From NCBI GenBank assembly GCA_040902765.1, contig JBBDWO010000030.1, positions 1,598 through 65,597 on the forward strand: a stretch of DNA of 64,000 nt, read 5' to 3'. This DNA is from Acidimicrobiia bacterium (lineage in GTDB: Bacteria; Actinomycetota; Acidimicrobiia; Spongiisociales; UBA11373). The first letter of the stretch is position 1. The number at the start of each line of letters is the position of its first letter. Below, one piece after another: positions 4,663 through 58,902 of the stretch. The position numbers and the translations under genes were made by a program. The notes under the pieces were generated by a model, which was not told where the DNA came from, did no database searches, and worked only from the letters and a program-made list of their open reading frames with translations.

Positions 4663-4664
4663 GG

Positions 4665-4767
4665 CGCGATTCGCGATTCGCGATTCTCGGTTCGCAATTC
4701 GCGATACCGGAAGCTTGCCCGACGACGCGCTGTCGATCCCGCGAATCGCGAATCACGAATCACGAAT
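4665..4767. repeat. inverted heptamer arrays with (CGCGATT)x3, CTCGGTT, CGCAATT, CGCGATA at 4665-4706, a 33-nt spacer, then (CGCGAAT)x2 and (CACGAAT)x2 at 4740-4767. The element ends 20 nt before the tsaE ATG.
   Basis: Read from the sequence. Confidence 0.9.
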
Positions 4768-4786
4768 TGCGGAGCGAAGCGACCCC

Positions 4787-9570: not shown

Positions 9571-9618
9571 CGTTTCGAAACGAACGGTTGAGGGGCGGCC
9601 CACGGGTCGCCCCTCAAC
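9571..9618 (+). terminator. candidate intrinsic terminator after groEL: 12-nt palindrome CGTTTCGAAACG plus an 11-bp GC stem (GTTGAGGGGCG / CGCCCCTCAAC), with no U-tract
   Basis: Perfect inverted repeats immediately 3' of groEL. Confidence 0.45.
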
Positions 9619-9626
9619 GCGTCGTT

Positions 9627-9718
9627 AGTTGCCAGTTGCCAGTTGCCAGTTGCCAGTTGCCGGTCGCCGGTCCCCAGTCTCTTGGGGCGGGGCTCTGGCT
9701 GGTGGCTGATGGCTACTC
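9627..9718. repeat. heptamer arrays: (AGTTGCC)x5 plus GGTCGCC, GGTCCCC (9627-9675), a CCCCA-loop-GGGG hairpin, then GGCTCTG, GCTGGTG, GCTGATG, GCTACTC (9691-9718), which overlaps the stop of the minus-strand GNAT gene
   Basis: Read directly from the sequence. Confidence 0.85.
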
Positions 9719-10318
9719 GCCGAGCCACCCCTCTTCGACATACCGTGGCTGCTCGCGGGGGTACTCGTCGTCGAGGAGGGCCCAGAGGGAGTGGTCCACC
9801 CATTCGCCGCGGACGAGGACTTCACGGCGCAGGACGCCTTCCTGGACGAAACCGAGTTTTTCGGCGATGCGCTCACTCGCCCGGTTGCCCACCGCGATGC
9901 GCAGGGTCACCCGGTGCAGTTCGAGTTCTTCGAAGGCGGCCTGCACCACCCGCGCTCCGGCTTCGGTGGCGATGCCCTGACTGCCGACCGAGGTCCGCAC
10001 CCAGTATCCGATCTCACCCGACTGCTCGCGACGGGAGGTGTGCCACACCGAGATGTTGCCCAGGTGGCGCTCGGGATCGTCGAGGGGGCGGATCGTCATG
10101 TCGAAGGCTCGCCCATCGACCCACGCCGCCGCCGAGTCACGGATGAAACGGAGGGCATCCGCGCGGCGATAGCGGTCGGCTGCCCATGGGAGCCACGGTT
10201 CCAGTTGGGACTTGGATTCGGTGACGGCCTCGAGTAGGGAGTCGAGATCGCGCCGACGAAAGGGCCGCAGCTCCAGTCGTGGCGTGTAGCGCGATTGTGC
10301 GGCCAGCCGTGAAGGCAT
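9713..10318 (-). CDS. GNAT family N-acetyltransferase (RimJ/RimL-like)
   Basis: The PRLELRPF... N-terminal region and Acetyltransf_3-like motifs (IGYWV, RVTLRIAVGNRASERIAEKLGF). Confidence 0.7.
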   Translation of the reverse strand: MPSRLAAQSRYTPRLELRPFRRRDLDSLLEAVTESKSQLEPWLPWAADRYRRADALRFIRDSAAAWVDGRAFDMTIRPLDDPERHLGNISVWHTSRREQSGEIGYWVRTSVGSQGIATEAGARVVQAAFEELELHRVTLRIAVGNRASERIAEKLGFVQEGVLRREVLVRGEWVDHSLWALLDDEYPREQPRYVEEGWLGE

Positions 10319-10331: not shown

Positions 10332-10395
10332 TCAACGCTCAACGCTCAACGCTCAACGCCTTCACGCTCAACGCTCAACGCTCAACGCTCAACGC
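10332..10395. repeat. (TCAACGC)x4, an 8-nt variant CTTCACGC, then (TCAACGC)x4. The array begins 13 nt upstream of the GNAT start codon.
   Basis: Read directly from the sequence. Confidence 0.9.
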
Positions 10396-10428
10396 CAGAC
10401 TCGTCGAGTACTGCGTTCAGCGTGAAGT

Positions 10429-10535
10429 GTTGAGCGTCTTCTCCTGCGTTGAGCGTTAGGCGTTGAGCGTCTTCTCTGGCGTTGAGCGTTTTCTCCTGCG
10501 TTGAGTGTCTTCTCCTGCGTTGAGCGTTCTTGTCG
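10429..10535. repeat. 19-bp tandem repeat GTTGAGCGTCTTCTCCTGC, about 6 copies (one truncated to 14 nt), in inverted orientation to the upstream TCAACGC array and ending 14 nt before the Nudix start
   Basis: Units at 10429-10447, 10462-10480, 10481-10499, 10500-10518, with variant units between and after. Confidence 0.85.
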
Positions 10536-10548: not shown

Positions 10549-11091
10549 ATGACCGACCTGTGGGCCCCCCTCGCTTCGCTGCCGTCGGTGGCGAGTCCGT
10601 CAGGGGTGCGGGCTGCCGTCCTCGTGCCGATCTATGAGGACGACGGGCGGTTGCGGGTCATCATGACGCAACGGCCTGAGGAAATGCGCAGCCATCCGGG
10701 CGATGTCGTGTTCCCCGGTGGGATGATCGAACCAGGTGACGCCGACCCGATCGCTTGCGCCATCAGGGAGGCTTCCGAGGAGGTGGGACTCCCGGCCCGC
10801 AACGTCATCGAGATCCTGGGCGGTCTCAGCCCGGTGAACACCCGGTCGGTGACGATGAAGATCGTCCCCGTGGTCGCCCGGGTGGAACGCCCCGCCGAAC
10901 TGGTGCCGCAGCCCGACGAAGTCGCCGCCATCTTCGAGCCGAGCATCGACGAGCTGCTCGACGACGATGCCTGGCGCACCACCGACTGGGGCGGTCGCAC
11001 CATGTGGTTCTACGAATTCCCCAACGCGGTGCTGTGGGGAGCCACCGCGTTCATGGTGCGAGACCTGTTGGAGTACTTCAGGAACGCGTAG
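10549..11091 (+). CDS. Nudix hydrolase (CoA pyrophosphatase-like)
   Basis: Nudix box GGMIEPGDADPIACAIREASEEVGL. The UPF0035/NudL-like context motif LVPI...DG.L.VIMTQR is present. I chose ATG 10549 because the ORF-table start at 10501 lies inside the 19-bp repeat. Confidence 0.65.
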   Translation: MTDLWAPLASLPSVASPSGVRAAVLVPIYEDDGRLRVIMTQRPEEMRSHPGDVVFPGGMIEPGDADPIACAIREASEEVGLPARNVIEILGGLSPVNTRSVTMKIVPVVARVERPAELVPQPDEVAAIFEPSIDELLDDDAWRTTDWGGRTMWFYEFPNAVLWGATAFMVRDLLEYFRNA

Positions 11092-11180
11092 TAACGCTCA
11101 ACGCAAGAGAAGACGCTCAACGCCTAACGCTCAACGCCAGATCTGGCGAGTCCTGCGTTGAGCGTTGAGCGTTGAGCGTC
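11092..11180. repeat. TCAACGC-family hairpin element with left units TAACGC, TCAACGC, ...ACGCTCAACGC, CTAACGC, TCAACGC, the loop AGATCTGGCGAGTCCT, and right units (GCGTTGA)x3
   Basis: Read from the sequence. It lies between the convergent Nudix and arsC 3' ends and starts at the Nudix TAG stop. Confidence 0.85.
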
Positions 11181-11186
11181 GGCCCC

Positions 11187-11594
11187 TTAACGGAGCGCGT
11201 CGAACTCCTTCAACAACGCTTTCACACGCTCTTTGATCTCATCCCTGAGCGGGCGGATGTCCTCGAGGGGTAGGCCCGAGGGGTCGTCCAGTTCCCAGTC
11301 GCGGTAGACGACGCCGGGGAAGTAGGGACACTCGTCTCCGCAGCCCATGGTGACCACGACGTCGGCGTCGCCGATGACGTCGTCGGTCCACTTCGCTGGC
11401 TTCGTCTCCGACATGTCGATGCCGACCTCGAGCATGGCGGCAACCGCACTGGGATTGACATGGGCGCCGGGATCGGACCCACCGGAGAACACCTCTACCC
11501 GGTCGCCGCCCAACTCCCGAGCGAACGCCGCAGCCATCTGCGATCGCCCTGCGTTGTGGACGCAAAGGAAGACGATGCGGGGCGTGGCGGTCAC
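11187..11594 (-). CDS. arsC: arsenate reductase / low-molecular-weight protein-tyrosine-phosphatase family (thioredoxin-coupled ArsC type)
   Basis: The CVHNAGRS P-loop (Cx5R), the downstream Cys pair GCGDECP and a length of 135 aa. Confidence 0.65.
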   Translation of the reverse strand: MTATPRIVFLCVHNAGRSQMAAAFARELGGDRVEVFSGGSDPGAHVNPSAVAAMLEVGIDMSETKPAKWTDDVIGDADVVVTMGCGDECPYFPGVVYRDWELDDPSGLPLEDIRPLRDEIKERVKALLKEFDALR

Positions 11595-11617: not shown

Positions 11618-11680
11618 GAACGCTTAACGCTCAACGCTCAACGCTCAACGCAAGAGAGGGTGAGTCTGGCGTTGAGCGCT
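11618..11680. repeat. TCAACGC-family element with GAACGC, TTAACGC and (TCAACGC)x3, then AAGAGAGGGTGAGTCTGG, then GCGTTGAGCG. GGGTGAG...CTCACCC flanks the right arm.
   Basis: Read from the sequence. Confidence 0.85.
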
Positions 11681-11733
11681 CACCCCCTAAGCGTCTGCAA
11701 GGCAACGATGACCGTCTCACTAGGTTCTCCTTG

Positions 11734-12438
11734 CTACGCGCCCCACCACGCCACGAACAGCGGTGCCAGCGCGATGGCCGGCAGCATGTTCGCCACCCTG
11801 ACCTGCTTCAGGTCGAGGAGGCGCAGCGCAATGCCGAGCAGCAATATCCCGCCGGCCGTTGCCAGGGCATCGATCATCGGGTCGGTGAGGAGTCCGTCGA
11901 GCGCTCCTCCGGCGACGGCCAGGCCGCCCTGGACGACGGCGACGGTCATCGCCGCCAGTGCCACCCCCCACCCGTAGACGGCGGCAAAGGCGATCGAGGC
12001 GAATCCGTCGAGCGCCGCCTTCACCAGCAGCATCTCGTGATCTCCGAGCCCGTCGCGGATGGACCCGACGACGGTGAGCGGTCCCACGCAGAACACCAGA
12101 GAGGCGAGGACGAAGCCTTCGCTGAACCTCCGCTGGCCGCCTCCGGAGAGGTCTTCGGACGAGACTCGTGATTGGAGGAACCGGCCGAAGCGCTCCAATC
12201 CCTGTTCGATCCGCAGGCTCTCTCCCAGGAGCACACCGACGAGGACGGCGGCGATGACGAGCGGGAATTCGCCGGTGGCCATCGTCTCGCGAATCCCGAG
12301 TGCGGCGGTGATGAGGCCGAGCGTTGCCATCAGGGTGGTGCGGAACCGCTCGGGGAAGCGACTGCCGGCGACGGCTCCTATGGCACCCCCGACGAGCACG
12401 GTCACGACGTTCACCAGGGTGCCGATCGGGAGGCTCAT
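11734..12438 (-). CDS. DUF554-family integral membrane protein (YqgA-like)
   Basis: About 234 aa and polytopic hydrophobic. ATG 12438 overlaps the stop of the upstream gene (ATGA). The longer 414-aa ORF-table entry is a frame-read-through artefact. Confidence 0.45.
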   Translation of the reverse strand: MSLPIGTLVNVVTVLVGGAIGAVAGSRFPERFRTTLMATLGLITAALGIRETMATGEFPLVIAAVLVGVLLGESLRIEQGLERFGRFLQSRVSSEDLSGGGQRRFSEGFVLASLVFCVGPLTVVGSIRDGLGDHEMLLVKAALDGFASIAFAAVYGWGVALAAMTVAVVQGGLAVAGGALDGLLTDPMIDALATAGGILLLGIALRLLDLKQVRVANMLPAIALAPLFVAWWGA

Positions 12439-17371: not shown

Positions 17372-18914
17372 CCGGTTCGTGCCGACCAGCCAACGGGTCC
17401 TCGTCGTCGACTTCGGTGCCCAATACGCCCAGCTGATCGCCCGACGCGTGCGCGAGGCCCGCGTCTTCTCGGAGATCGTCCCCCGGGAGGTGACGGCAGC
17501 TGAGGTGGAGGCGGCGGCACCGATCGCCATCATCCTGTCCGGCGGCCCTGCCTCGGTCTACGCCGACGATGCCTACCGGCTCGATCCCGGGATATTCGAC
17601 CTCGGCATCCCGGTCATGGGCATCTGTTACGGCCACCAGGTGATCGCCGACACCCTCGGCGGCACGGTGGAGCGCACCGACGCGGCCGAGTTCGGTCGAA
17701 CGCCGATCACCGTCGCCGACCGGACCGGGCTGTTCTCGGGGCTACCCGCCGCCCACGAGGTGTGGATGAGCCACCGGGACGCCGTGGTGAGACCCCCCGA
17801 CGGGTTTACCGTCACCGCGGCGACGCCGGGGTCTCCGGTAGCCGCCATGGAGTCTGTGGGCCGCCGGATCGTCGGTGTGCAGTTCCACCCCGAGGTGGCG
17901 CACAGCCCTCATGGTCAGGCGGTGCTGGAGCGCTTCCTCTACGACGTGTGCGGTGCGTCGCCGTCATGGACCGCGGAGTCGATCGTGGACCAGGCGGTGG
18001 CTCGGGTCGCCGCCCAGGTCGGCGACGCCGAGGTGATCTGTGCGCTTTCGGGCGGCGTCGACTCGGCTGTGGCCGCGGCGATCGTCCATCGCGCCGTCGG
18101 CGATCGTCTCACCTGTGTCTTCGTCGATCACGGTCTGTTGCGCGAGGGTGAGCGGGCACAGGTGGAGGCGGCCTTTCGTGCGGCGCTCGACGTGCCCCTG
18201 GAGGTGGTCGACGCGTCGGACCGCTTCATCGATGCGCTCGCCGGTGTCACCGACCCCGAGGAGAAGCGCCGCATCGTCGGGGAGGCCTTCATCAGGGTGT
18301 TCGAGGAGTTCGCGCGACGGCACCGCGGCGCTCGCTTCCTGGTCCAGGGCACGCTTTATCCCGATGTCATCGAGTCGGGGAGCCGGGATGCGGCCCGGAT
18401 CAAGAGCCACCACAACGTCGGGGGGCTGCCCGAGGACATGGACTTCGAGCTCGTGGAGCCGCTGCGTGACCTGTTCAAGGACGAGGTACGGGCCGCCGGC
18501 GAGGAGCTCGGCCTACCGGAGGCCATGGTGTGGCGGCAGCCCTTCCCGGGTCCCGGTCTCGCGGTGAGGATCATCGGCGAGGTGACCCGTGAGCGTCTCT
18601 CCATCCTGCGTGCTGCCGACGCAATCGTCACCGAGGAGATCCGCAAGGCGGGGCTGGAACGCGAGGTGTGGCAGGCGTTCGGGGTCCTTCCGGCGATTCG
18701 GTCCGTGGGCGTCCAGGGGGATACCAGGACCTACGCCCATCCGCTCATCCTGCGGGCGGTGTCCTCCGAGGACGCCATGACCGCAGACTGGGTGCGGCTG
18801 CCCTACGAGGTGCTGGAAGCGATCTCGTCGAGGGTGATCAACGAGGTAGACGGGATCAACCGGGTGGCCTACGACATCTCGTCGAAGCCGCCGGCGACGA
18901 TCGAGTGGGAATAG
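17346..18914 (+). CDS. guaA: GMP synthase (glutamine-hydrolysing)
   Basis: An N-terminal GATase domain ([17 protein letters not shown]) and a C-terminal ATP-PPase domain (SGGVDSAV), with a full-length 522-aa product. The start codon is uncertain and could be GTG 17346 or a later codon. Confidence 0.9.
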
Positions 18915-19021: not shown

Positions 19022-21037
19022 GTGTCCGCAAGCGATGAAGTAGATCTCCAATCGCTCTTCGCCGCCGAGATCGATGAGCGCAGTGCCCGTCTGGCCGAGG
19101 GTGCGACGCGTTTGCATGGCGCGCCGCTCGATGCCGAGTCCCTCGCCACGATGGTGAGGGAGGGGCACACCATCAAGGGAACGGCCCGGATGATGGGGTT
19201 CATCGCAATCTCCGACGCCGGCAAGCTCCTCGAGGACGGATGGCGATACCTGCGTGATGGGGAGCTCGAGGCCTCGAGCACCATCGCCGAGGCTCTCGCC
19301 CTGCTCACCGCGGAGGTGCGTGCCGCCGTGGACGCCGACCCGGCCACCGGCACTCCCGGTCTGGCCGCGGGGATGCGCGCCCTGCGGGTCGCTCTCCATG
19401 ACCAGGGCGCCGATGCACCCGAGCCCACGCACGATCCCGTTCCCACCGCCAGCGATCTCGACGGTCTGCTCGGCACGATCGGCACCCTCGGGTTCGGCGA
19501 CAACGTTCGGGTCGACGCCACCAACCTGTATCGCCTGATCAACGAGTTGTGCTCTCTGCGCGTCGACGTAGAAGTGCTCGCCGAGAAGGCGGGGAGCGCG
19601 GTCGCCGATGGCTCCAAGGTCGCCGAACTCGCCGCGTTGGTAGATGAGATCGACGCCTCCGTCGTCGACCTGCAAGAACGCGCCGTCGAGCTGGCCGCTA
19701 TGCCGCTCAGTGAGATCACAGCGACGTTCATCCAGCTGGTTCGCTACATCGCCCGTCGCTCCGACAAGGACGTCCGGCTCGAGATGACCGGGACGGACAC
19801 CGTCGCCGACCGCCGGGTCGTGGAGAGACTGTCGGACCCGTTGCGCCATCTCCTGGTGAATGCGGTGGAGCACGGGATCGAGACGGTCGCCGAGCGTCAG
19901 GCGCGAGGCAAACCCCGTACAGGGTCGCTGACGCTGACCGCCGAGGTCACCGGTCAGCGGCTCACCATCACGATCGAGGACGACGGGCGCGGGGTGGACT
20001 GGGCGGCGGTGCACCGCGTCGGAATTCGGCGCGGCCTGATCGACGAGAGTCAGGTGGACGATCGGGATGCGCTTCGCTCCCTGCTGTTCACCGCGGGGGT
20101 GTCGACGGTGCCGGACGGCGAGTTGGTCGGGGACGGATCCGGCCTGGCCCTGGTGGCCTCGGTGGTGGAGTCGCTCCAGGGAACGCTCACTTTCGACACC
20201 GAGCCGGGGCGGGGGACCCGGGTGGTGATCGCGGTTCCGCGAAGTAGGGCCCTTCAGGATGCGGTGATCGTCACCGCCGCCGGCCAGGACTGGGGCATTC
20301 CCGAGATCTCGATCCTCGAGTCGGTGCCCTTCGCCGATCTGGAGATCCACGAGACCGGGTCGCGCCGCGAGGTGTTCTGGCTCGATCGCTGGATCCCCGT
20401 GGTGGGATTTGCCGAGGCCGTCGGGCTGCGACCGGCTGGCGAGCCCGATCGCCTCCTGGTGGTGTCGACGACATCTGGTCCGGTGGGTCTCGCCGTCGAG
20501 TTCGAGAAGGGCCGCCGTCAGGTCGCGGCCCGCGAGCTGGGGCCGGTACTCGCAGGCATTCCCCATCTCACCGGCGCGGCGCTCCTCGGGGCAGGCGAGG
20601 TGATCGTGCTCGTCGACCCGACCCGGCTGGCCGATCGGGCCCGCGCTGCGCAGACGCCGACAGGCCCGCGGCCCAAGGTGCTCGTCGTCGATGACTCCCG
20701 AGGGGCTCGACTGGTGGTGGGCGGGGCACTCGGTTCGGCCGGGTTCGAGGTCGAGCTGGCCGGCAGCCCGACCGAGGCGCTGTCCGTTCTCGCCGAGCAG
20801 TCGTTCGATGCACTCGTCGTGGACTATCAGATGCCCACCATGGACGGTGCCACCCTGGCGGCTCGAATCAGGGAGTTGGGGATCGATTCTCCGATCATCA
20901 TGCTGTCAGGCGTGGCTACCGCCGCCGACGCCAGCCGGGCGATCGAGGCCGGCGCCAACGCCTATCTCGACAAGGACGACGTCCGTAAGGGCGCCCTCGC
21001 CGAAGCGATACGGGGATTGGTGAGGACCAGCGACTAG
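19022..21037 (+). CDS. cheA: CheA-type hybrid histidine kinase with domains Hpt(P1), dimerisation, HATPase(P4), CheW-like(P5) and C-terminal receiver (REC)
   Basis: The Hpt domain EGHTIKGTARMMGF, the HATPase region HLLVNAVEHGIE...DDGRGVD...GSGLAL, and the CheW-like region. The REC domain is KVLVVDDSR...VVDYQMPTMDG. The start is the GTG at 19022 after GAGGTAATCCC. Confidence 0.75.
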   Translation: MSASDEVDLQSLFAAEIDERSARLAEGATRLHGAPLDAESLATMVREGHTIKGTARMMGFIAISDAGKLLEDGWRYLRDGELEASSTIAEALALLTAEVRAAVDADPATGTPGLAAGMRALRVALHDQGADAPEPTHDPVPTASDLDGLLGTIGTLGFGDNVRVDATNLYRLINELCSLRVDVEVLAEKAGSAVADGSKVAELAALVDEIDASVVDLQERAVELAAMPLSEITATFIQLVRYIARRSDKDVRLEMTGTDTVADRRVVERLSDPLRHLLVNAVEHGIETVAERQARGKPRTGSLTLTAEVTGQRLTITIEDDGRGVDWAAVHRVGIRRGLIDESQVDDRDALRSLLFTAGVSTVPDGELVGDGSGLALVASVVESLQGTLTFDTEPGRGTRVVIAVPRSRALQDAVIVTAAGQDWGIPEISILESVPFADLEIHETGSRREVFWLDRWIPVVGFAEAVGLRPAGEPDRLLVVSTTSGPVGLAVEFEKGRRQVAARELGPVLAGIPHLTGAALLGAGEVIVLVDPTRLADRARAAQTPTGPRPKVLVVDDSRGARLVVGGALGSAGFEVELAGSPTEALSVLAEQSFDALVVDYQMPTMDGATLAARIRELGIDSPIIMLSGVATAADASRAIEAGANAYLDKDDVRKGALAEAIRGLVRTSD

Positions 21038-21045
21038 CGCTGGTC

Positions 21046-21141
21046 CGCGATTCGCGATTCGCGATTCGCAAGACGCACCGTGAGCCTTCCAGCGCGGCTC
21101 TGGCGTCCTGTCTGACGAATAGCGAATTGCGAATTGCGAAT
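21046..21141. repeat. inverted heptamer arrays with (CGCGATT)x3 at 21046-21066, a 44-nt spacer, and GACGAAT, AGCGAAT, (TGCGAAT)x2 at 21114-21141
   Basis: Read from the sequence. It lies between the cheA stop and the pcrA start. Confidence 0.85.
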
Positions 21142-21198
21142 AGCGCTCAAATCACAGCCCGGTGATTCGAGCCATACCCCCGCCCTAAACTCTTTCTC

Positions 21199-23382
21199 GT
21201 GGCCGAATCGACGCTCCTCGACGATCTGAACGCGTCGCAGCGCGACGCGGTGACGACCACCGAGGGACCGGTGCTCGTGGTGGCCGGCGCCGGGTCGGGC
21301 AAGACCCGCGTCCTCACCTATCGGGTCGCCCATCTGATCAGGGACCTGGGGGTGTCTCCGTACGCCATCCTCGCCATCACCTTCACCAACAAGGCCGCCG
21401 ATGAGATGAAGGAGCGAGTAGCTCGTCTCGTCGGTGGGGTGGCTCGCGGCATGTGGGTGTCGACCTTCCACTCGGCGTGCGTGCGGATCCTGCGCCGGGA
21501 GGCCCATGCCCTCGGATATCGCTCGGGATTCACCATCTACGACGACATCGACTCGCGTCGGCTCGTGGAGATGTGCGTGCGCCAGCTCGACATGGATCCG
21601 AAGCGGTTCCCTCCCAAGGCGATCCGCGGTGCCATCAGCAATGCGAAGAACGAGCTGATCGACGCCCAGTCGTTCGCCGAGAAGGGAGGCGGCCCCTATC
21701 ATGCTCGGGTCGCCGAGGTGTATCGCCTCTACCAACGGCGGCTGGTCGAGGCGTCGGCCATGGACTTCGACGACCTCCTCATGGTGACCGTCGACCTGTT
21801 CGGTGCCTTCCCCGACGTGCTCGAGCAGTACCGGCAGCGATTCCAGTACGTCCTGGTAGACGAGTACCAGGACACCAACCACGCCCAGTACCGCCTGGTG
21901 CAGATGCTCGCCGGCGCTCATCGGAACCTGTGTGTGGTGGGCGACTCAGACCAGAGCATCTACGCCTTCCGGGGCGCCGACATCCGCAACATCCTCGACT
22001 TCGAACACGACTACCCCGACGCGACGGTCGTGGTCCTCGACCGGAACTACCGATCCACTCAGACCATCCTCGACGCCGCCAATGCGGTCATCTCCAACAA
22101 CGCCAGCCGTCGCCCCAAGGAGTTGTGGACCGAGGTCGGCGTGGGGGACCCGATCACCGTGTACCGGGCCGAGGACGAGCACGACGAGGCTGCCTTCATC
22201 GCCGAGCGCCTCGCCGAGCTGCCCGAGCAGCGCCTAAACCTATCGGATGCGGCGATCTTCTATCGCACGCACGCCCAGTCGCGCGTGCTGGAGGAGGTCC
22301 TGGTGAGGTTCCGCGTGCCCTATCAGGTGATCGGCGGGCCCAAGTTCTACGACCGGCGCGAGGTCAAGGACGCCATGGCCTATCTGAAGGCCATCGTCAA
22401 CCCCGACGACCAGGTGGCTTTGAAGCGGATAGTCAACGTGCCGAAGCGGGCGATCGGTGACACGACGGTGGCTCACGTCGACCGTTTCGCCGAACGGGAA
22501 GGCATCTCATTCCACGATGCCCTCACCCGTGCCGCCGAGATCGAGGCGCTCACGTCGCGAGCGGCGAATGCTGTGGCCGAATTCGTCGCCCTGCTCAGCG
22601 TGCTCGCCGCTGCGGCGGAGGATGGCCCTCGCGCCGCGCTCGAGGCCGTTCTCCACGACACCGGCTATCTGGCTGCGTTGCAGCAAGAGGGGAGTGTGGA
22701 GGCGCTGAGCCGGGTGGAGAACCTGCAAGAACTCATCTCGGTGGCTTCCGAGTTCGAGGAGGCAGGTCCGACCGGCGACTTAGGGGACGAGCACTGGAAC
22801 GACATGACCGGTACCCGGCGTCTGGAACGCTTCCTCGAGGCAACCGCCCTCGTATCCGATGTCGACGCTCTGGAGGATTCGGGCGTGGTGACCCTGATGA
22901 CGCTCCACAACGCCAAGGGTCTCGAGTTTCCCGTGGTGTTCATCGCCGGCATGGAGGACGGGGTGTTCCCCCACATGCGCAGCCTCGGCGATCCGACCCA
23001 GTTGGAGGAGGAGCGGCGCCTCGCCTATGTCGGCATCACCAGAGCCCGCCAGAAGCTCTACCTGACCCACGCCACGACGCGGAACCTGTTCGGGGCGAAC
23101 CAGTGGAACTCGGCGAGCCGGTTCCTCACCGAGATCCCCGCCAAGTACGTCGACGAGCAGAAGCCGCGTCTCCGGGTTCGTGAGCGCGAGGAGACGGCGC
23201 CGCGTCGCACGATGCGTGGTGCCGATGTTGGTCGGGGGCACCGGGTCCGCCACGGCACATTCGGTCTCGGTACCGTAAAGGCGATACACGGTGAGGGCGA
23301 CGACGCCGAGGCGGTGGTGGTGTTCGACGAGTTCGGTGAGAAGCGGCTGGCGCTGTCGATCGCCCCTCTGGAGTCGGCGTGA
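21199..23382 (+). CDS. pcrA: ATP-dependent DNA helicase PcrA/UvrD1 (SF1)
   Basis: The Walker A motif AGAGSGKT, the UvrD motifs, and a C-terminal GHRVRHGTFGLGTV Tudor-like tail. There is no HRDC or tetracysteine region, so it is not UvrD2. Confidence 0.85.
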   Translation: MAESTLLDDLNASQRDAVTTTEGPVLVVAGAGSGKTRVLTYRVAHLIRDLGVSPYAILAITFTNKAADEMKERVARLVGGVARGMWVSTFHSACVRILRREAHALGYRSGFTIYDDIDSRRLVEMCVRQLDMDPKRFPPKAIRGAISNAKNELIDAQSFAEKGGGPYHARVAEVYRLYQRRLVEASAMDFDDLLMVTVDLFGAFPDVLEQYRQRFQYVLVDEYQDTNHAQYRLVQMLAGAHRNLCVVGDSDQSIYAFRGADIRNILDFEHDYPDATVVVLDRNYRSTQTILDAANAVISNNASRRPKELWTEVGVGDPITVYRAEDEHDEAAFIAERLAELPEQRLNLSDAAIFYRTHAQSRVLEEVLVRFRVPYQVIGGPKFYDRREVKDAMAYLKAIVNPDDQVALKRIVNVPKRAIGDTTVAHVDRFAEREGISFHDALTRAAEIEALTSRAANAVAEFVALLSVLAAAAEDGPRAALEAVLHDTGYLAALQQEGSVEALSRVENLQELISVASEFEEAGPTGDLGDEHWNDMTGTRRLERFLEATALVSDVDALEDSGVVTLMTLHNAKGLEFPVVFIAGMEDGVFPHMRSLGDPTQLEEERRLAYVGITRARQKLYLTHATTRNLFGANQWNSASRFLTEIPAKYVDEQKPRLRVREREETAPRRTMRGADVGRGHRVRHGTFGLGTVKAIHGEGDDAEAVVVFDEFGEKRLALSIAPLESA

Positions 23383-24032
23383 GCGCCGAGACGGCAGAGG
23401 TCTTGGTCCGACTCGCCGTGGCGGCAGGCCTGTCGGGCATAATCGGCTTCGAGCGTGAGGTCGCCCACAAGAACGCCGGTCTCCGCACCCACATGCTCGT
23501 CGGTCTCGGTGCCGGTGTGTTCACCCTGCTGAGCCTGGAGTTTCCCCGATCTCCGGTATCCGACCCGGCCCGTATCGCCGCGCAGATCGTCACCGGTGTC
23601 GGCTTCCTCGGAGCGGGAGCCATCTTCAGGTCTGGTCTCGCCGTTCGCGGGTTGACCACGGCCGCCGGTCTGTGGCTGGCAGCCGCCGTGGGCATGGCTG
23701 CGGGCGCCGGCGAGTACTTCATGGCCGTCGTGGCGACGATCATCGCCGTCGCCGTGCTCTACGTGGTGGGTATCGGTCAGTGGCTGGTGCGGGGCAGGCG
23801 GGAACAGGCGATCACCGTGATTCGGATCCGGGTGTCAGAACCCGCCCTCGTCGACGAGGTTCGGTCCGCCGCTCGGTCGCTCATCCCGCGCGGTGGCGAG
23901 GTGTCCATTCACGAGATCGGCGATGACCGCGCCACGATCCACACCACCGTCGAACCGAAGATGTCCGACACCCTCATGCGCCAGCTGGCGGCGATCCCCG
24001 GCGTCGATCGCGTCTTCCGCGTAGAAGGCTGA
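23379..24032 (+). CDS. mgtC: MgtC/SapB family membrane protein
   Basis: [30 protein letters not shown] is an MgtC signature. GTG 23379 overlaps the pcrA stop. Confidence 0.7.
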
Positions 24033-24047
24033 GGCTCCGCCTCAGCC
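24027..24047 (+). terminator. GC hairpin GGCTGAGG-CTCCG-CCTCAGCC overlapping the mgtC stop
   Basis: A perfect 8-bp stem. Confidence 0.45.
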
Positions 24048-24108
24048 GTTACCCGTTTCCCGTTTCCCGGCAGGCGACAGGTAACCGGCAACCGGTAACG
24101 GGTAACCT
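24048..24108. repeat. inverted heptamer arrays with GTTACCC and (GTTTCCC)x2, a 12-nt spacer, then GTAACCG, GCAACCG, GTAACGG, GTAACCT. The element ends 10 nt before the ATG of the B12-domain gene.
   Basis: Read from the sequence. Confidence 0.85.
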
Positions 24109-25663: not shown

Positions 25664-26541
25664 TGGCGATCTTCGTCGACGCCAGCACGCGACTCGTCGT
25701 CCAGGGGCTCACCGGCAGCCAGGGCCGATTCCATGGCTTCCGCAACCGGGACTCGGGGACGCGCCTGGTCGCCGGGGTCACTCCTGGCAAGGGCGGGATG
25801 GATCTCGACGGCGTCCCGATCTTCGACACGGTGTCCCAGGCGGTCGAAGCGACCGGTGCCAACACGTCGATGGTGTTCGTGCCTCCCGCCTTCGCCGCCG
25901 ACGGCATCCTCGAGGCGGCCGACGCCGACGGAATCAACCTGATCGTCGCCATCACCGAGGGCATCCCCGCCCACGACGAGGCCCGGGTGTACAACTACAT
26001 TCGCCAGACCAGCCGGACACCGCTCATCGGACCCAACTGCCCGGGACTCATCTCGCCGGGGAAGGCCAATGTGGGGATCACCCCCCACGAGATCACGCTG
26101 CCGGGCTCGGTCGGCGTGGTGTCGCGCTCGGGGACCCTCACCTACCAGGCGGTCCACGAACTCACGGTGCGCGGCATCGGACAGAGCACCTGTGTTGGCA
26201 TCGGTGGCGATCCGGTTCCGGGCACGTCGTTCGTCGACGTGCTGGAGCGATTCGAGGAGGACTCCGAGACCGAGGTGATCGTGATGATCGGCGAGATCGG
26301 CGGCAGCGCCGAGGAGGAAGCAGCGCTGTTCATCCGTGACCACGTCAGCAAGCCCGTGGTCGGCTACATCGCCGGGGTCACCGCACCCGCGGGCAAGAAG
26401 ATGGGCCACGCCGGAGCGATCATCTCGGGTTCCTCCGGCACCGCCGCCGCCAAGCAAGAGGCGCTGCGCGCCGCCGGAGTCACCGTCGTCGACGACCCCA
26501 GCGCCATAGGCGAAGCAGTAGGAATAGCGATTGGCAATTAG
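25663..26541 (+). CDS. sucD: succinate--CoA ligase alpha subunit
   Basis: The CoA-binding region and the catalytic-His region (GHAGAIISG). Its ATG overlaps the sucC TGA. The last six codons (GIAIGN) and the TAG stop are encoded by heptamer units. Confidence 0.9.
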
Positions 26542-26615
26542 CAATTAGCAATTGGCAAGAGTCGGAGTGCCGGGTTCTTGGACTCTTGCTGGTAGCTGGT
26601 AGCTGGTGGCTGGCG
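26523..26615. repeat. AATAGCG, ATTGGCA, (ATTAGCA)x2, ATTGGCA overlapping the sucD 3' end; then a 9-bp hairpin GCAAGAGTC-(16 nt)-GACTCTTGC; then (GCTGGTA)x2, GCTGGTG, GCTGGCG
   Basis: Read from the sequence. Confidence 0.85.
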
Positions 26616-26634
26616 ACTGGGGCCCGGTGACTTC

Positions 26635-27346: not shown

Positions 27347-28207
27347 GTGACCGCTCACATCCTGTCCGGAACCGACGCCGCCGCCGTGTGGCGAGCAGAA
27401 GTGGCCGGCCGCGTCGGCGCCCTCGCCGCCGAGGGGATCCGACCCCGCCTCGCCACCGTCCTGGTCGGAGACGATCCGGCGTCGGAGGTATACGTCCGCA
27501 TGAAGTTGCGGGCTGCGGCGCGTGTCGGGCTCGACGCCACTGGGATCCGGCTCGAGGCAACAGCAGCGCAGCAGGAGGTCGAGGAGGTCGTCGCCGGGCT
27601 GGCAGCCGATTCATCGATCGACGGTTTCCTGGTGCAACTCCCGTTGCCCGCTCACCTCGATTCGATCCCGATCGTGCAGGGCATCCCCCCGTCAAAGGAC
27701 GTCGACGGCCTCAATGTCGCCAGCCTCGGGCGGATGGTGCTCGGACTCCCCGGGGCGCGCCCGGCGACCCCTACCGGGATCCTGCGCCTCCTCGATCACT
27801 ACGGGATCTCCATCGCCGGGCGGCCCGTAGTCGTCGTCGGGAGGTCTCAGCTGGTTGGTCGACCGCTGTCGATCATGCTGTCGCTGGCCGGTCGTGATGC
27901 CACCGTCACCGTCGCCCATTCCAGGACCAACGACTTGCCGGACATCACCCGTCGCGGCGAGGTCCTCGTTGTGGCGGCCGGCCAGCCTGGCCTCATTGGC
28001 CGTGAGCACGTCGCACCGGGAGCGGTCGTCGTCGACGTCGGCGTCACCCGAGTCGGAGACCGCCTCGTCGGTGATGTGGCGGCGGAGGTCGCCGAGGTCG
28101 CAGGTGCACTATCACCGGTCCCGGGAGGCGTCGGCCCGATGACCATCGCCGCCCTCCTGGCGAACACGGTCCTCCTGGCGGAGGCCCGAGTAGCGAGTAG
28201 CGAGTAG
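27347..28207 (+). CDS. folD: bifunctional methylenetetrahydrofolate dehydrogenase/cyclohydrolase
   Basis: Conserved FolD motifs VYVRMK...GFLVQLPLP...VVVVGRSQLVGRPL. The C-terminal RVASSE and the TAG stop are encoded by AGTAGCG units. Confidence 0.9.
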   Translation: MTAHILSGTDAAAVWRAEVAGRVGALAAEGIRPRLATVLVGDDPASEVYVRMKLRAAARVGLDATGIRLEATAAQQEVEEVVAGLAADSSIDGFLVQLPLPAHLDSIPIVQGIPPSKDVDGLNVASLGRMVLGLPGARPATPTGILRLLDHYGISIAGRPVVVVGRSQLVGRPLSIMLSLAGRDATVTVAHSRTNDLPDITRRGEVLVVAAGQPGLIGREHVAPGAVVVDVGVTRVGDRLVGDVAAEVAEVAGALSPVPGGVGPMTIAALLANTVLLAEARVASSE

Positions 28208-28291
28208 CGAGTAGGAAGTACCAAGTACCAGGTACCAAGTACCTCTCTGGCTAATTGCCAATTGCGACTTCCCAATAGCGACTTGCGATAA
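28189..28291. repeat. 14 consecutive heptamer units: (AGTAGCG)x3, AGTAGGA, (AGTACCA)x2, GGTACCA, AGTACCT, then GCTAATT, GCCAATT, GCGACTT, CCCAATA, GCGACTT, GCGATAA. The element overlaps the folD 3' end and ends about 30 nt before icd.
   Basis: Read from the sequence. Confidence 0.85.
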
Positions 28292-31974: not shown

Positions 31975-32016
31975 AAATGTGTGAGGGGCGCCCAACCGGG
32001 CGCCCCTCACACATTT
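31975..32016. terminator. strong bidirectional terminator candidate with a perfect 19-bp stem AAATGTGTGAGGGGCGCCC / GGGCGCCCCTCACACATTT and a 4-nt loop
   Basis: Read from the sequence. It lies between the convergent hup and SCP2 genes. Confidence 0.6.
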
Positions 32017-32017
32017 C

Positions 32018-32115
32018 AGCTATTAGCCATTAGCTATTGGCTTTTAGCCAGAACCGGGCGAAGGCCTCGCGAGCGTCTGGCCAATTGCTAATAGCCAATA
32101 GCCAATAGCCAATAG
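32018..32115. repeat. inverted heptamer arrays with AGCTATT, AGCCATT, AGCTATT, GGCTTTT, a 29-nt spacer, then CCAATTG, CTAATAG, (CCAATAG)x3
   Basis: Read from the sequence. The spacer contains CGCGAG and GCGTCTGG, which are also present in the 58814-58848 spacer. Confidence 0.85.
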
Positions 32116-32119
32116 CTCT

Positions 32120-32506
32120 CTAGTACTCCACGTCCACCGTGGATGCGGCATTGGCGAAGTCGGTCATGATCCGCTGATGCTGGAGCAGCTTGCCCATGTT
32201 CCCCGTGATCTTGATCTTGCCGGTCATGAACGCCATCTGCGTGTTGAGTTCCCCCTTGCTGATGGCGACGGCCGTCTGGTAGGTGCTACTGATGGTGGCA
32301 TCGGCGGAGTCGCTGCCACCGGAAGCGACTGCGACCGACCCATTGTCGAGGGCCAGCGTGTATGCCAACAGGCGATCTTCTGGTGGGTCGGTCACCTCGA
32401 ACGAGAGGGTGAGGTCGACGCCACCGATGGCGGAGGTGAATCCCTCATGCCCCGACAGTGCGGTCTCGAGGGCCTCGAGCCACTCATCGGTCAGAAACTT
32501 GGCCAC
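32120..32506 (-). CDS. SCP2 (sterol carrier protein-2-like) domain protein
   Basis: The SCP2 fold motif ...MTGKIKITGNMGKLLQH. The start GTG at 32506 has AAGGAG 8 nt upstream. The longer ORF-table version would overlap the dapA-like gene by 59 nt. Confidence 0.55.
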   Translation of the reverse strand: MAKFLTDEWLEALETALSGHEGFTSAIGGVDLTLSFEVTDPPEDRLLAYTLALDNGSVAVASGGSDSADATISSTYQTAVAISKGELNTQMAFMTGKIKITGNMGKLLQHQRIMTDFANAASTVDVEY

Positions 32507-33443: not shown

Positions 33444-33470
33444 CGAGCGAAGGCTGGCGCCTTCGCTCGC
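33444..33470. promoter_or_regulatory. perfect 12-bp inverted repeat GCGAGCGAAGGC-TGG-GCCTTCGCTCGC, 19 nt upstream of the dapA-like start
   Basis: Read from the sequence. It is a candidate operator or leader hairpin. Confidence 0.35.
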
Positions 33471-33473
33471 GGA

Positions 33474-33562
33474 GGGCAGAAGGCAGAGGGCGGATGGAGT
33501 TCGCTGTCTGCTGTCTGCTATCTGCTATCTGAGGCTCTGCCCTCTGCCGTCCGCCGTCTCCT
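33474..33562. repeat. nested heptamer arrays with GGGCAGA, AGGCAGA, GGGCGGA; a central (CGCTGTC/TGCTGTC/TGCTATC)x4; and reverse-complement units CTGCCCT, CTGCCGT, CCGCCGT
   Basis: Read from the sequence. It lies in the divergent dapA-like / sdhC region. Confidence 0.8.
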
Positions 33563-36257: not shown

Positions 36258-37021
36258 TGGACCTCACGCTGCGCGTCTGGCGCCAGGAAGCTGCCGGCAA
36301 GACAGGCAGGTTCGAGGAATACCGGGCGAGCGAGATCAGCCCGGATGCCTCGTTCCTCGAGATGCTCGACGTGGTCAACGACCGTCTCACGCTGGAGGGC
36401 GAGGAACCGATCGCCTTCGAACACGACTGTCGCGAAGGGATCTGTGGCTCCTGTGGCGTCATGATCAACGGCAAACCGCATGGCTCCGAGCGAGGCACGG
36501 CGACCTGCCAGCTCCACATGCGCCACTTCAGCGACGGTGATCTCATCGTGGTCGAGCCATGGCGTGCGTCCGGCTTTCCGGTGCTGCGCGACCTGGTGGT
36601 CGATCGGAGCGCCTTCGATCGGATCGTGGAGGCGGGAGGCTTCATCAGCGTCGACACGGGTAGTGCTCCAGAAGCCAACCTGATCCAGATCCCCAAGGAG
36701 GCGGCCGAGGCCGCCATGGACGCCGCCGCCTGCATCGGCTGCGGGGCGTGTGTCGCCGCCTGCCCGAACAGTGCGGCCCAGCTGTTCACCGCGGCGAAGA
36801 TCTCCCATCTCAACCTCCTGCCCCAGGGTCAGCCGGAGCGGTGGTCCCGCGTCGAGGCCATGGTGGATACGATGGAACAGTTCTTCGGGTCCTGCACCAG
36901 CTACGGCGAGTGTGAGGTGGCGTGCCCGAAGTCGATCTCTCTCGACTTCATCGCCCTGATGAACCGGGATTACGTCCGGTCGAAGTGGAAGAACCGTCGG
37001 TTGACGGGGCAGAAGAATTAG
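36257..37021 (+). CDS. sdhB: succinate dehydrogenase iron-sulfur subunit
   Basis: Cysteine clusters for 2Fe-2S ([10 protein letters not shown]), 4Fe-4S ([12 protein letters not shown]) and 3Fe-4S (CPKSIS). The TAG stop is the first unit of an AGTAGCG array. Confidence 0.9.
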
Positions 37022-37214
37022 CGAGTAGCGAGAGAACGCTCAACGCTTAACGCTCAACGCCAGAGTTCGTCGGTCTTGCGTTGAGCGTTAAGCGTCATTC
37101 CAGCTACCAGCTACCGATTGATCAGTGGCCAGTGGCGAGTAGGACGCTCAACGCTCAACGCTCAACGCCAGAGGTTGTCGCGTCTTGCGTTGAGGCGTTA
37201 AGCGTTAAGCGTGA
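37019..37214. repeat. composite element containing (TTAGCGAG)(TAGCGAG); TCAACGC hairpin element copy 1 (37034-37096, loop AGAGTTCGTCGGTCTT); (CAGCTAC)x2 and (CAGTGGC)x2 arrays; and TCAACGC hairpin element copy 2 (37143-37214, loop AGAGGTTGTCGCGTCTT)
   Basis: Read from the sequence. Confidence 0.85.
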
Positions 37215-37342: not shown

Positions 37343-37624
37343 ATGCTGGATGATCTGCGGCAAGCCCTGTTGGGGACCGGGGACGATCTCGCCTGGCAGG
37401 ATCGGGCCAACTGCACCGGTGCCAACGCCGATCTGTTCTTCCCGGAGCGCGGTGCATCGACCCGCACCGCAAAAGCCATCTGTCGCGCCTGCGACGTTCG
37501 CGAGGAGTGCCTCGAGTTCGCCATTACGACCGGCGAGAAGTTCGGCATCTGGGGCGGCATGTCAGAGCGCGAACGCCGCAAGGTCCGTCGCGACCGCCAG
37601 ATAGCGGCGAGACGAGCTTCGTAG
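37343..37624 (+). CDS. whiB: WhiB-family (Wbl) Fe-S transcription regulator
   Basis: Four Cys (C-x..-CRAC..EC) and GIWGG. There is no C-terminal AT-hook, so it is not WhiB7-type. Confidence 0.85.
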   Translation: MLDDLRQALLGTGDDLAWQDRANCTGANADLFFPERGASTRTAKAICRACDVREECLEFAITTGEKFGIWGGMSERERRKVRRDRQIAARRAS

Positions 37625-37721
37625 CGGGTAGCCGGTAGCTGGGAGCTGCTCTTCACGCTCAACGCTTAACGCCCAACGCAGGACTTGACGACCTCTGGCG
37701 TTGAGCGTTGAGCGTTACACG
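37622..37721. repeat. TAGCGGG, TAGCCGG, TAGCTGG, GAGCTGC starting at the whiB TAG stop; then TCAACGC hairpin element copy 3 with TCTTCACGC, TCAACGC, TTAACGC, CCAACGC, the loop AGGACTTGACGACCTCT, and (GGCGTTGA)(GCGTTGA)GCGTTAC
   Basis: Read from the sequence. Confidence 0.85.
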
Positions 37722-38719: not shown

Positions 38720-38866
38720 CCTCCCCCGTAGGGGGAGGTGGCAGCGGCCGCAGGCCGATGACGGAGGGGGAGGCCAGACGCGTCGCGAGGCCTCCGTACG
38801 GTGCACCCTCCCCCCTCCCCTCCGGTCGCTCTGCTCCCTGCGGTTCTCCCCCCTTCGGGGGGAGAA
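38720..38866. terminator. cluster of C/G-homopolymer hairpins between convergent genes: CCTCCCCC-GTA-GGGGGAGG (38720-38738), long-range GGAGGGGGAGG / CCTCCCCCCTCCCCTCC arms, and TTCTCCCCCC-TTC-GGGGGGAGAA (38844-38866)
   Basis: Read from the sequence. These are plausible U-tract-less actinobacterial terminators for both strands. Confidence 0.4.
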
Positions 38867-38892
38867 AGGAATCCTGTGGGCTGTTGCCCGGC

Positions 38893-44708: not shown

Positions 44709-45397
44709 CTCGCGTCCTCATCATCGAGGACGAGCCGTCCTTCGTCGACGCCCTGACCGTAGCGCTCGACCGTGAAGGGTTCGAGGTGTCGGCCGCCTCC
44801 GACGGGAAGGTCGGGCTCCAGGCGTTTCGTCGTGACCCGGTCGACATCGTGCTCCTCGACCTGATGCTTCCCGGCATGTCCGGACTCGACGTGTTGCGGG
44901 GGATCCGTAGCACTTCGGCCGTTCCGGTGATCGTCGTCAGCGCCAAGGATGCTGAGGCCGATGTCGTCACTGCCCTCGAGATCGGGGCCGACGATTACGT
45001 GACCAAGCCCTACTCGGTGCGGGAACTGATCGCCCGGATCCGAGCGGCATCGCGACGGGCGACGCCACAGGCCGACGACTCGGTCTGCACCGTCGGGACC
45101 GCCACACTCGACCTGGGAGCGATGCGTCTCACCGTCGGGGACCGAGGCGACGACCTCCCCAAGAAGGAATTTGAGGTCCTGGCGATGCTGATGCGCCAGG
45201 TGGGACGGGTGGTGTCCAGGGAGGACCTCCTCGACGAGATCTGGGGATACGCCTGGCTGTCCGAGACCCGCACCCTCGACCAGCACATCCGCCGATTGCG
45301 TCGCCGCCTGGAAGTGGATCCGGGAGCCCCCCGCATCGAGACGGTGCGCGGCGTTGGCTACCGGCTCACGGCTCCGCCGGTAACCGGTAACGGGTAA
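44705..45397 (+). CDS. regX3: OmpR-family response regulator RegX3/PhoP-like
   Basis: REC (LIIEDE...LLDLMLPGMSG) plus a winged-helix trans_reg_C domain. ATG 44705 overlaps the senX3 stop. The C-terminal PVTGNG and the TAA stop are encoded by (CGGTAAC)x3. Confidence 0.8.
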   Translation: MTRVLIIEDEPSFVDALTVALDREGFEVSAASDGKVGLQAFRRDPVDIVLLDLMLPGMSGLDVLRGIRSTSAVPVIVVSAKDAEADVVTALEIGADDYVTKPYSVRELIARIRAASRRATPQADDSVCTVGTATLDLGAMRLTVGDRGDDLPKKEFEVLAMLMRQVGRVVSREDLLDEIWGYAWLSETRTLDQHIRRLRRRLEVDPGAPRIETVRGVGYRLTAPPVTGNG

Positions 45398-45398
45398 C
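45378..45398. repeat. (CGGTAAC)x2 plus GGGTAAC. The regX3 TAA (45395-45397) and the TAG of the convergent peroxiredoxin gene (complement of 45398-45400) abut within GGGTAACTAGG.
   Basis: Read from the sequence. Confidence 0.85.
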
Positions 45399-47661: not shown

Positions 47662-47670
47662 ACGGCCAGC

Positions 47671-58880: not shown

Positions 58881-58902
58881 ATTCGTTGTATCGTCAGGGG
58901 CC

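Follow-up and report, generated by a model that had tools for sequence, protein, structure and literature searches.

Inverted heptanucleotide arrays at gene ends of an Acidimicrobiia bacterium and the stop codons that they overlap

Heptanucleotide arrays and neighbouring genes

A stretch of 64,000 nucleotides from an Acidimicrobiia bacterium (assembly GCA_040902765.1, contig JBBDWO010000030.1, positions 1,598 to 65,597), referred to below as the window, carries arrays of 7-nt units against the 3' ends of many of its genes. At several of these, sucD (codons and stop at 26521-26541) among them, the terminal codons and the stop codon are themselves repeat units. The period-7 arrays were called with a match-run detector and compared with periods 4-12. 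The 59 genes complete in the window were analysed, together with about 100 more in relatives. The names GNAT, Nudix, WhiB, PAS kinase, Lon-PDZ, MoaE, peroxiredoxin and OmpR-type regulator were taken from Pfam, and the other gene names were inferred from Pfam domains of syntenic loci. One rule was used for all genes: an array was counted as lying at the stop if it overlapped the stop codon or started no more than 12 nt from it.

At period 7 the detector returned 30 arrays in this window of 67% GC, whereas every other period from 4 to 12 gave 0-2; Tandem Repeats Finder (TRF) gave about 50 period-7 rows. The arrays are intergenic in 35 of 36 cases, though about 91% of the window is coding, and 171 of the 1558 masked period-7 bases fall in coding sequence. 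Although the period-7 mask amounts to 2.4% of the window, ten of the 59 stop codons lie within it (binomial p=1.5e-6); with lags of 5, 6, 8, 9, 10 and 11 as controls, 0-1 stops overlapped each time. Arrays were present in 18 of 26 intergenic regions with a gene end versus 2 of 8 divergent regions (p=0.04). Composed of at least three head-to-tail copies in excess over other periods, avoiding coding sequence, with a unit length that is not a multiple of 3 and with whole-unit changes of copy number between close relatives (see below), they are heptanucleotide simple sequence repeats (SSRs).

The usual layout is a pair of inverted array arms with a short apex between them, and nearly every such pair folds as a long hairpin. 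The stems span 60-110 nt and are built from tandem heptamers of several families, and the hairpins occur in many copies. TAG is present on one strand in 10 of the 36 arrays, all ten reading TAGC, and five arrays present it in three frames; TGA is found on one strand in nine. Among the commonest families, CGCGAAT is stop-free on both strands and TCAACGC/ACGCTCA is stop-free in its gene-facing ACGCTCA orientation. A TAGC core, ascribed to the heptamer in general by an initial annotation of the window, is therefore a property of ten arrays only. The TGA-bearing units GCGTTGA and CGGTTGA always occupy the distal arm in the window and so are never the first to meet a reading frame.

Gene ends formed by repeat units

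The positions of the individual features are given in Table 1. Codons 26521-26538 of sucD encode GIAIGN, the TAG stop follows at 26539-26541, and 26523-26543 reads AATAGCG ATTGGCA ATTAGCA, as the initial annotation had proposed. The stops of all the array genes that it named were located, and the terminal 4-7 codons plus the stop proved to be repeat-encoded in folD, moaE and regX3 as well as in sucD. Three CCGGTAA units supply the last codons of regX3 (PVTGNG) with its TAA stop at 45395-45397, and the convergent peroxiredoxin gene (-) ends in the same array with TAG at 45398-45400. The alignment of moaE with MoaE of the PDB stops at query residue 133 of 138 and that of regX3 with RegX3 2oqr at residue 221 of 230; both tails lie beyond the last aligned residues of solved homologues, a weak indication given that OmpR-family and MoaE C-termini vary in length anyway.

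At sdhB, whiB, the Lon-PDZ gene, the PAS kinase, and the minus-strand GNAT and peroxiredoxin genes, the stop is the first, sometimes degenerate, unit of an array and is in phase with the next. In sdhB the units are followed by an ACGCTCA/GCGTTRA hairpin with the apex CCAGAG..GTCTTG. The Lon-PDZ stop is in phase with TAG at +14, +21 and +28 of a degenerate 5' arm, and the PAS kinase stop (TAG 47575-47577) stands at the junction with (GCTACCG)x8. The GNAT call (9713-10099, -) is probably truncated at its N-terminus, and the intergenic region would then be shorter than the 506 nt listed.

Table 1. Positions of heptamer arrays, hairpins and associated stop codons (window coordinates unless a relative is named)
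Feature	Coordinates	Strand	Remarks
sucD 5' (gene-proximal) arm	26523-26561	+	AATAGCG ATTGGCA ATTAGCA ATTAGCA ATTGGCA
sucD hairpin apex	26556-26587	+	CAAGAGTC - loop - GACTCTTG
sucD 3' (distal) arm	26584-26622	+	(GCTGGTA)n; pairs with 5' arm via G:U wobbles
folD array	28187-28214	+	(CGAGTAG)x4; encodes RVASSE; TAG 28205-28207; TAG in all three frames
Array immediately 3' of folD array	28216-28243	+	(AAGTACC)x4
moaE array	50402-50436	+	GGTAGCT CATAGCT CATGGCT CATGG; last codons (GAGSS) and TAG 50417-50419
regX3 (+) / peroxiredoxin (-), convergent	45375-45401		(CCGGTAA)n, common to both gene ends
sdhB	37019-37098	+	stop TAG 37019-37021, first of two TAGCGAG units
whiB	37619-37649	+	stop TAG 37622-37624, first of TAGCGGG TAGCCGG TAGCTGG
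Lon-PDZ hairpin	58777-58882	+	TAG 58777-58779; apex CCAGA..TCTGG; 3' arm (GCCAATA)n
PAS kinase (+) / zincin (-) hairpin	47573-47668		between the two genes
GNAT	9694-9717	-	stop TAG 9713-9715, first degenerate unit TAGCCAT of array CAGCCAC CAGCCAG
guaA	18912-18949	+	own TAG 18912-18914, then stop-free (CGCGAAT)x3
cheA-like kinase	21035-21147	+	own TAG 21035-21037; arms (CGCGATT)x3, (CGAATWG)x4
SCP2	32014-32122	-	own TAG 32120-32122, then GCTATTG/GCCAATA hairpin, apex CCAGA..TCTGG
59011-60579 gene	60577-60688	+	own TAG 60577-60579; (TTCGCGA)n/(GCGAATN)n hairpin one nt later
UDG (4036-4662)	4660-4773	+	TGA 4660-4662, counter-example to TAG; (CGCGATT)n/(CGCGAAT)n hairpin two nt later
MgtC (23379-24032)	24030-24107	+	TGA 24030-24032, counter-example to TAG; then (CCGTTTC)n/(GGTAACC)n hairpin
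Nudix (+) / LMWPc (-) common hairpin	11089-11189		arms ACGCTCA/GCGTTGA
ACGCTCA-family hairpins	10332-10470, 11113-11179, 11619-11700, 37035-37098, 37144-37212, 37655-37716
CGCGATT-family hairpins	4665-4771, 21046-21145, 60581-60687
Apex motif sites, window	11138-11146, 11651-11669, 21069-21103, 26556-26580, 32048-32080, 37060-37078, 37168-37187, 58808-58849
Apex motif sites, relatives	L024 1574-1602, 3248-3262; L026 8198-8217
GC-rich hairpins ahead of heptamer hairpins	9585-9620, 31975-32015, 57580-57615

Orthologous gene ends and array turnover

SucD homologues place the window in the uncultured Acidimicrobiia. In a FolD search of genome contigs, relatives among the matches listed reached no more than 54% identity. 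Most of the best 120 SucD homologues have 290 amino acids and end ..IGEAVAxLL; SucD of the window has 292 and ends ..EAVGIAIGN. The syntenic guaA-to-sdh region was compared in seven relatives. In L024 (97% SucD identity) the arrays are as in the window with different copy numbers, and in L026, L156, L155, L151 and L153 (84-85%) they belong to other unit families and stand partly at different gene ends. L028 (CP129495.1, 1747321-1768196; 84% SucD identity, gene order conserved) has zero period-7 arrays in 20.9 kb and uses TGA at 15 of 18 gene ends. Array-free L028 and the 290-residue SucD consensus indicate the ancestral gene ends.

Repeat-encoded termini of other kinds were found in the relatives. 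In L153, sucD ends DALGIRS-TAG and udk ends GADRS-TAG, both from a TTAGGNN family that is unrelated to the ATTRGCA units of the window; in L151, folD ends AAMSDER-TGA, from (GCGATGA)n; and in L155 the terminal TAG of mgtC adjoins a (CCGGTCG)n array. Array-less orthologues have shorter, different tails, those of folD finishing 3-5 residues sooner. By these alignments the sucD and folD tails are lineage-specific, whereas the C-termini of guaA (ATIEWE) and whiB (RRAS) are identical across orthologues. The TAG of guaA is also present in L026 and L155, with no array nearby, and that of whiB in L153, where an array starts just downstream; guaA and whiB thus keep terminus and stop without an overlapping array, the array is not the supplier of the stop there, and the whiB stop is the gene's own. 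The initial view that arrays repeatedly encroach on 3' ends was borne out: judged from the orthologous sequences, overruns have arisen independently in separate lineages and from unlike units, at sucD in the window and L153 and at folD in the window and L151, with further cases at udk in L153 and mgtC in L155.

Differences between the window and L024 were of two types. The sucD 5' arms differ by an exact one-unit 7-nt indel, and the folD array has seven CGAGTAG copies in L024 versus four in the window. In the sucD 3' arm (window 26584-26613 vs L024 1609-1634) all three units have changed from GGTAGCT to GGGGGCT, and the four AAGTACC copies at 28216-28243 of the window align gaplessly to CGAGTAG units at L024 3220-3244. 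Along the latter segment, CGAGTAG has become CAAGTAC in the whole arm jointly. At 97% identity, such differences point to slippage-prone repeats that would evolve concertedly, beyond what copy-number slippage alone would give.

A metagenome scan with (ACGCTCA)3.5 returned 120 contigs (L031-L150) with a GC content of 0.40-0.74 from many taxa and environments, rather than further members of the window lineage. In the high-GC subset, open reading frames (ORFs) often finish exactly on the first GCGTTGA unit, and the stops overlapped by (GCGTTGA)n are TGA in 7 cases, TAA in 3 and TAG in 1. The occurrence of (ACGCTCA/GCGTTGA)n in contigs of many environments indicates that gene-end heptamer arrays are widespread beyond the clade of the window. 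In these taxa the GCGTTGA arm faces the gene, opposite to the window. A large group of contigs near GC 0.55 has other, AACNNNC-type heptamers.

Gene ends that keep a stop of their own

A second class of genes, which includes guaA, cheA and Nudix (all three listed in the initial annotation as having stops embedded in units), retains its own TAG outside any unit, with an array 0-9 nt later; the SCP2 (-) and 59011-60579 genes are the others. The Nudix TAG lies at 11089-11091, and in the cheA-like kinase the stem begins within the stop (TAGCGCT..AGCGCT). The arms beside these genes are stop-free, and the same holds where the own stop is not TAG: it is TGA in UDG, MgtC and zincin (47671-48747, -), where TGA 47671-47673 adjoins a TCAACCG arm, and TAA in LMWPc (11187-11594, -; TAA 11187-11189), a further counter-example to TAG.

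Relative to the stop, proximal arms that are stop-free begin between -1 and +13, and those that bear a stop begin between -26 and -3, so that at most about 7 codons are repeat-encoded. The contrast has a Mann-Whitney p of 0.06 under a noisy classification of arms.

Stop-codon usage

Under the common rule, the stops of the 17 genes with an array at the stop are TAG 12, TGA 3 and TAA 2; those with an array 13-120 nt downstream are TAG 3, TGA 4 and TAA 3; and those of the 32 genes without an array are TAG 2, TGA 29 and TAA 1. The enrichment of TAG at array genes, put initially at fourteen of fifteen with UDG, MgtC, zincin and LMWPc left out, persisted at a lower ratio. Against all genes without arrays it has p=5e-6. 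The expectation that array-less and overlapping genes mostly use TGA was also upheld, and this is where the comparison is confounded: TGA ends 21 of the 22 closely coupled genes without arrays, mostly in ATGA/GTGA/TGATG overlaps, and since these overlaps force TGA they account for a large share of the contrast. When array genes were compared with free-standing array-less stops (gap of at least 20 nt), TAG was found in 12 of 17 versus 2 of 10 (p=0.018).

Where the stop is a repeat unit it is TAG in 9 of 10 cases, and at window genes with an own stop beside a stop-free arm in 5 of 9. The latter proportion is not significantly above the 2 of 10 for free-standing array-less stops (p=0.17) or 17 of 64 when such stops of the window and relatives were pooled (p=0.12). 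In the relatives, stops overlapped or abutted by arrays are TAG in 5 and TGA in 6, on a background TAG frequency of about 10-25% in L028 and the others. A stop supplied by a repeat is whichever stop its unit holds, and TAG as a special property of the arrays was not sustained in view of these counts, the TGA of folD in L151 and the metagenome stops.

The GTAG context of the stops is not enriched (G before TAG in 8 of 17, about the expectation from the GC content of third codon positions, GC3). TAG directly follows the conserved C-termini of guaA and whiB, and its reassignment as a sense codon was rejected on this ground.

Hairpin structure and neighbouring elements

The sucD hairpin folds as RNA at -45.3 kcal/mol on the + strand (z -4.5) and at -21.4 kcal/mol on the - strand, and it is the only hairpin for which strand-specific pairing was clear. 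Over 13 co-directional regions no consistent advantage of the sense strand was found, the sense fold being better in 6 and the antisense in 7; G:U wobble as a general proof of RNA function was dropped for this reason. In sucD, cheA, Lon-PDZ and the 59011-60579 gene the stop codon is itself paired, either inside the stem or at its base.

U-tract terminators were not above chance (4 sites in 18-38 kb versus 5.1 expected, and 0 at array hairpins), and no Rfam 15 family matched at gathering score in the whole window. No T-run stands behind the array hairpins, which places them outside the definition of intrinsic terminators. Given the scarcity of canonical terminators, the principal candidates for 3'-end structures are the array hairpins. 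Each gene of the convergent pairs groEL/GNAT and HU/SCP2 has a hairpin to itself. Downstream of groEL, HU and the gene for the solute-binding protein, the heptamer hairpin is preceded by a GC-rich one that is perfect but lacks a U-tract.

Where the two arms meet the loop, the sequence is C(C/A)AGA ...loop... TCT(T/G)G irrespective of the heptamer family. Of the 15 window matches to this motif, eight sit exactly between the arms of an array, and only 6 are in the 91% that is coding; no match was present in L155, L151 or L153. The motif looks like an apical module common to the hairpins of the window lineage. The polarity of the arms is conserved within a family: ACGCTCA precedes GCGTTGA in 6 of 6 hairpins, and CGCGATT precedes GCGAATN in 3 of 3. 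Since this polarity reads alike on both strands of a hairpin, its conservation may reflect whole-hairpin copying or a constraint on structure.

Further elements were observed in intergenic DNA. The segment 10329-10530, upstream of Nudix, has (TCAACGC)x9, a CCAGAC apex and several tandem 19-nt blocks (TCTTCTCCTGCGTTGAGCG); the repeated block resembles the 3' apex half joined to the beginning of the distal arm (TRF gave periods of 19 and 33). A second dispersed element, TCTCCCCCCGAAGGGGGGAGA, ~20 nt, GGAGGGGAGGGGGGAGGG, was found at the non-orthologous sites 38790-38880 (- strand) of the window and 14784-14850 of L151. Its neighbours in the window are the 37783-38703 gene and the 38893-39585 gene (putative phoU, by its position in a pst cluster); in L151 it stands downstream of icd. 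At 33469-33559, arrays of GCTGTCT/GCTATCT and CTCTGCC occupy the divergent promoter region of DHDPS (-) and sdhC (+); being between two gene starts, they are an exception to the gene-end location.

Discussion

The effect of the arrays on stop codons looks like a by-product, and we consider it probable, though well short of certain, that it arises from slippage-prone hairpin repeats which are packed against ORF ends and sometimes overrun them. Inverted 7-nt arrays form hairpins at most gene-end intergenic regions, close against the upstream stop, and they change fast, whole units being gained or lost and all units of an arm rewritten together. Slippage or template switching would be the generator of such changes and purifying selection the filter. 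Where an arm grew or was rewritten across the native stop, the ORF would read into the repeat. As 7 and 3 have no common factor, units with a sense-strand stop would bring one into frame after at most three copies (21 nt), and the protein would swap or gain merely 1-7 terminal residues, a change that can be tolerated. Crossing by an arm without a sense stop would add a long tail, so that such an arm would halt 0-13 nt past the stop. The dominance of TAG in the window lineage would reflect the NNTAGCN type of those gene-proximal arms that bear a stop. By raw counts, a sense-orientation stop is present in about half of the gene-proximal arms versus about 35% of all array orientations; as this is no clear excess of stop-bearing arms beside genes, selection for a stop module is not needed.

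Several points weigh against this account. The properly controlled comparison of TAG usage reaches p=0.018, and the sample of genes is small (59 in the window, about 100 in relatives). TAG at 5 of 9 own stops beside stop-free arms lacks an explanation, though the excess is not significant. The evidence at the RNA level is mixed, sucD alone being strand-specific and the other comparison standing at 6 versus 7 regions. The conserved arm polarity and the CCAGA..TCTGG apex shared across families are easier to reconcile with whole-hairpin copying than with slippage that is purely local.

Within the by-product account, the hairpins may act as transcribed 3'-end structures of the terminator or mRNA-stabiliser type, a candidate role suggested by their placement (18 of 26 versus 2 of 8 regions), by the scarcity of U-tract terminators and by the one hairpin per gene at convergent ends.

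The polarity and the shared apex would also be expected of mobile hairpins, similar to repetitive extragenic palindromes (REPs) or miniature inverted-repeat transposable elements (MITEs), with a TAG at their terminus or with insertion into targets that contain one, as would the recurrence of unit families at many loci and the TAGC of all ten TAG-bearing units. REPs with GTAG termini often provide flanking ORFs with their TAG stop (Di Nocera et al. 2013, PMC3733652). Such an origin is nevertheless doubtful. The array ends show neither a constant junction nor a target duplication, and the frequency of G before TAG is near the GC3 expectation. Relatives have quite different unit families at equivalent syntenic positions, and close relatives differ by single-unit indels and concerted change in place, not by presence or absence. 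No match to a Y1 transposase was obtained in a Pfam scan of 20 of the 60 window proteins, in which no transposase-directed search was made.

Selection of the array hairpin as a combined stop and 3' untranslated region (UTR) device was raised by the initial annotation and is unlikely. Such a device would stop ribosomes in all frames, after readthrough or frameshifting as well, and would couple TAG termination by release factor 1 (RF1) to folding of the hairpin. Hairpins no more than 12 nt from the stop at 17 genes, stops paired in or at the base of the stem and the all-frame TAG of five arrays would suit such a device, and REPs no more than 15 nt from a stop alter translation in Escherichia coli (PMC12306157). 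The arithmetic of the all-frame stop is correct, but it follows automatically from the unit length for any unit that holds a stop and carries no evidence of function. About half of the gene-proximal arms lack a sense stop, the commonest families are stop-free on the gene-facing strand (CGCGAAT on both), arrays at stops of relatives have TAG and TGA in nearly equal number, and L028 manages without arrays, with ordinary stops and hairpins. The persistence of TAG at guaA and whiB without an overlapping array likewise goes against a selected stop.

It is quite unlikely that the hairpins constitute an element class that is actively propagated in the uncultured clade, each with a conserved CCAGA..TCTGG apex between heptamer arms that renew themselves. 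In that case entire hairpins would be copied or rewritten by a dedicated enzyme, and selection would hold them on the stop codon, which would be part of the element and no by-product; RF1 release at TAG would gate hairpin folding and thereby 3'-end formation or decay of the transcript.

Least probable is an indirect association in which operon-terminal genes of the window lineage simply favour TAG and arrays simply mark terminator sites, neither being causal: the overlap-forced TGA of array-less genes, the array-independent TAG of guaA and whiB and the TAG genes without an abutting array (56196-57566, 60738-63638 and 11734-12438) agree with it, but the free-standing array-less stops of the window are TGA 8 and TAG 2, including the terminal, convergent mdh and 30615-31532 genes, at 9-10 genes the TAG can be shown to be a repeat unit that keeps phase with the adjacent ones, and the C-termini of sucD and folD are altered.

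Rapidly evolving repeats between genes rewrite the C-termini and stops of core housekeeping genes (sucD, folD, udk and mgtC), repeatedly and independently within one clade, which is relevant to the annotation of gene ends in metagenome-assembled genomes, to statistics of stop usage and to C-terminal alignments. The SucD-bearing contigs of the window lineage are mostly 1-5 kb long, possibly through assembly breakage at the repeats. Array-rich lineages beside the array-free CP129495.1 offer a natural comparison for the role of long gene-end repeat hairpins in organisms without canonical U-tract terminators.

Comparison with known repeat systems

No inverted heptamer-array hairpins were found described for Acidimicrobiia or actinobacteria in the literature, and the underlying family of hairpin elements appears to be undescribed, with arm polarity and the common apex as its unexplained features.

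GTAG-tagged REPs and the arrays of the window are alike in being high-copy intergenic hairpins near or overlapping ORF ends; REPs are single palindromes of 20-40 bp with an unpaired GTAG/CGTC head and are linked to REP-associated tyrosine transposases (RAYTs) (PMC3733652). The window hairpins are not short imperfect palindromes of this kind: their stems of 60-110 nt are made of tandem 7-nt units of many families, they have no constant head or unpaired GTAG/CGTC end, their TAG is usually inside the stem, and GTAG occurs only within some units (AGTAGCG, GGTAGCC). To our knowledge, no RAYT is known for the Acidimicrobiia lineage of the window.

Cyanobacterial heptamers of the short tandemly repeated repetitive (STRR) type are intergenic, slippage-prone repeats. 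A period of 7 is the favoured unit of long SSRs in many bacteria (Mrazek et al. 2007, cited in PMC4679880 and PMC4692102); for this general excess, the two citing sources describe neither systematic inverted arms nor a supply of stops. The TAACTGA forward repeats of marine Beggiatoaceae, cyanobacteria and Bacteroidetes are, like those of the window, intergenic heptamer arrays; they have stops in all three frames, overlap ORF ends by up to 18 nt, and 13 ORFs finish in them (MacGregor 2015, PMC4679880). Unlike the window arrays, they are of one unit, are direct only with no inverted-arm hairpins, and lie mostly on the 5' UTR side of genes, where translational regulation was proposed (PMC4679880).

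The GGGAATC heptamers of Xanthomonas and GGGGAYT heptamers of Nostoc come close in position: as in the window, they are SSRs enriched between co-oriented ORFs, with a strong bias to lie within 50 bp of the stop or overlapping it, and they are transcribed, with occasional inverted pairs (Rehm et al. 2015, PMC4692102). Each genus has one G-rich unit, read as G-quadruplex forming (PMC4692102), whereas the units of the window are diverse, not G-rich and paired in Watson-Crick hairpins. The supply of a stop codon by an adjoining repeat has clear precedents among REPs and these other heptamers and is ordinary in principle.

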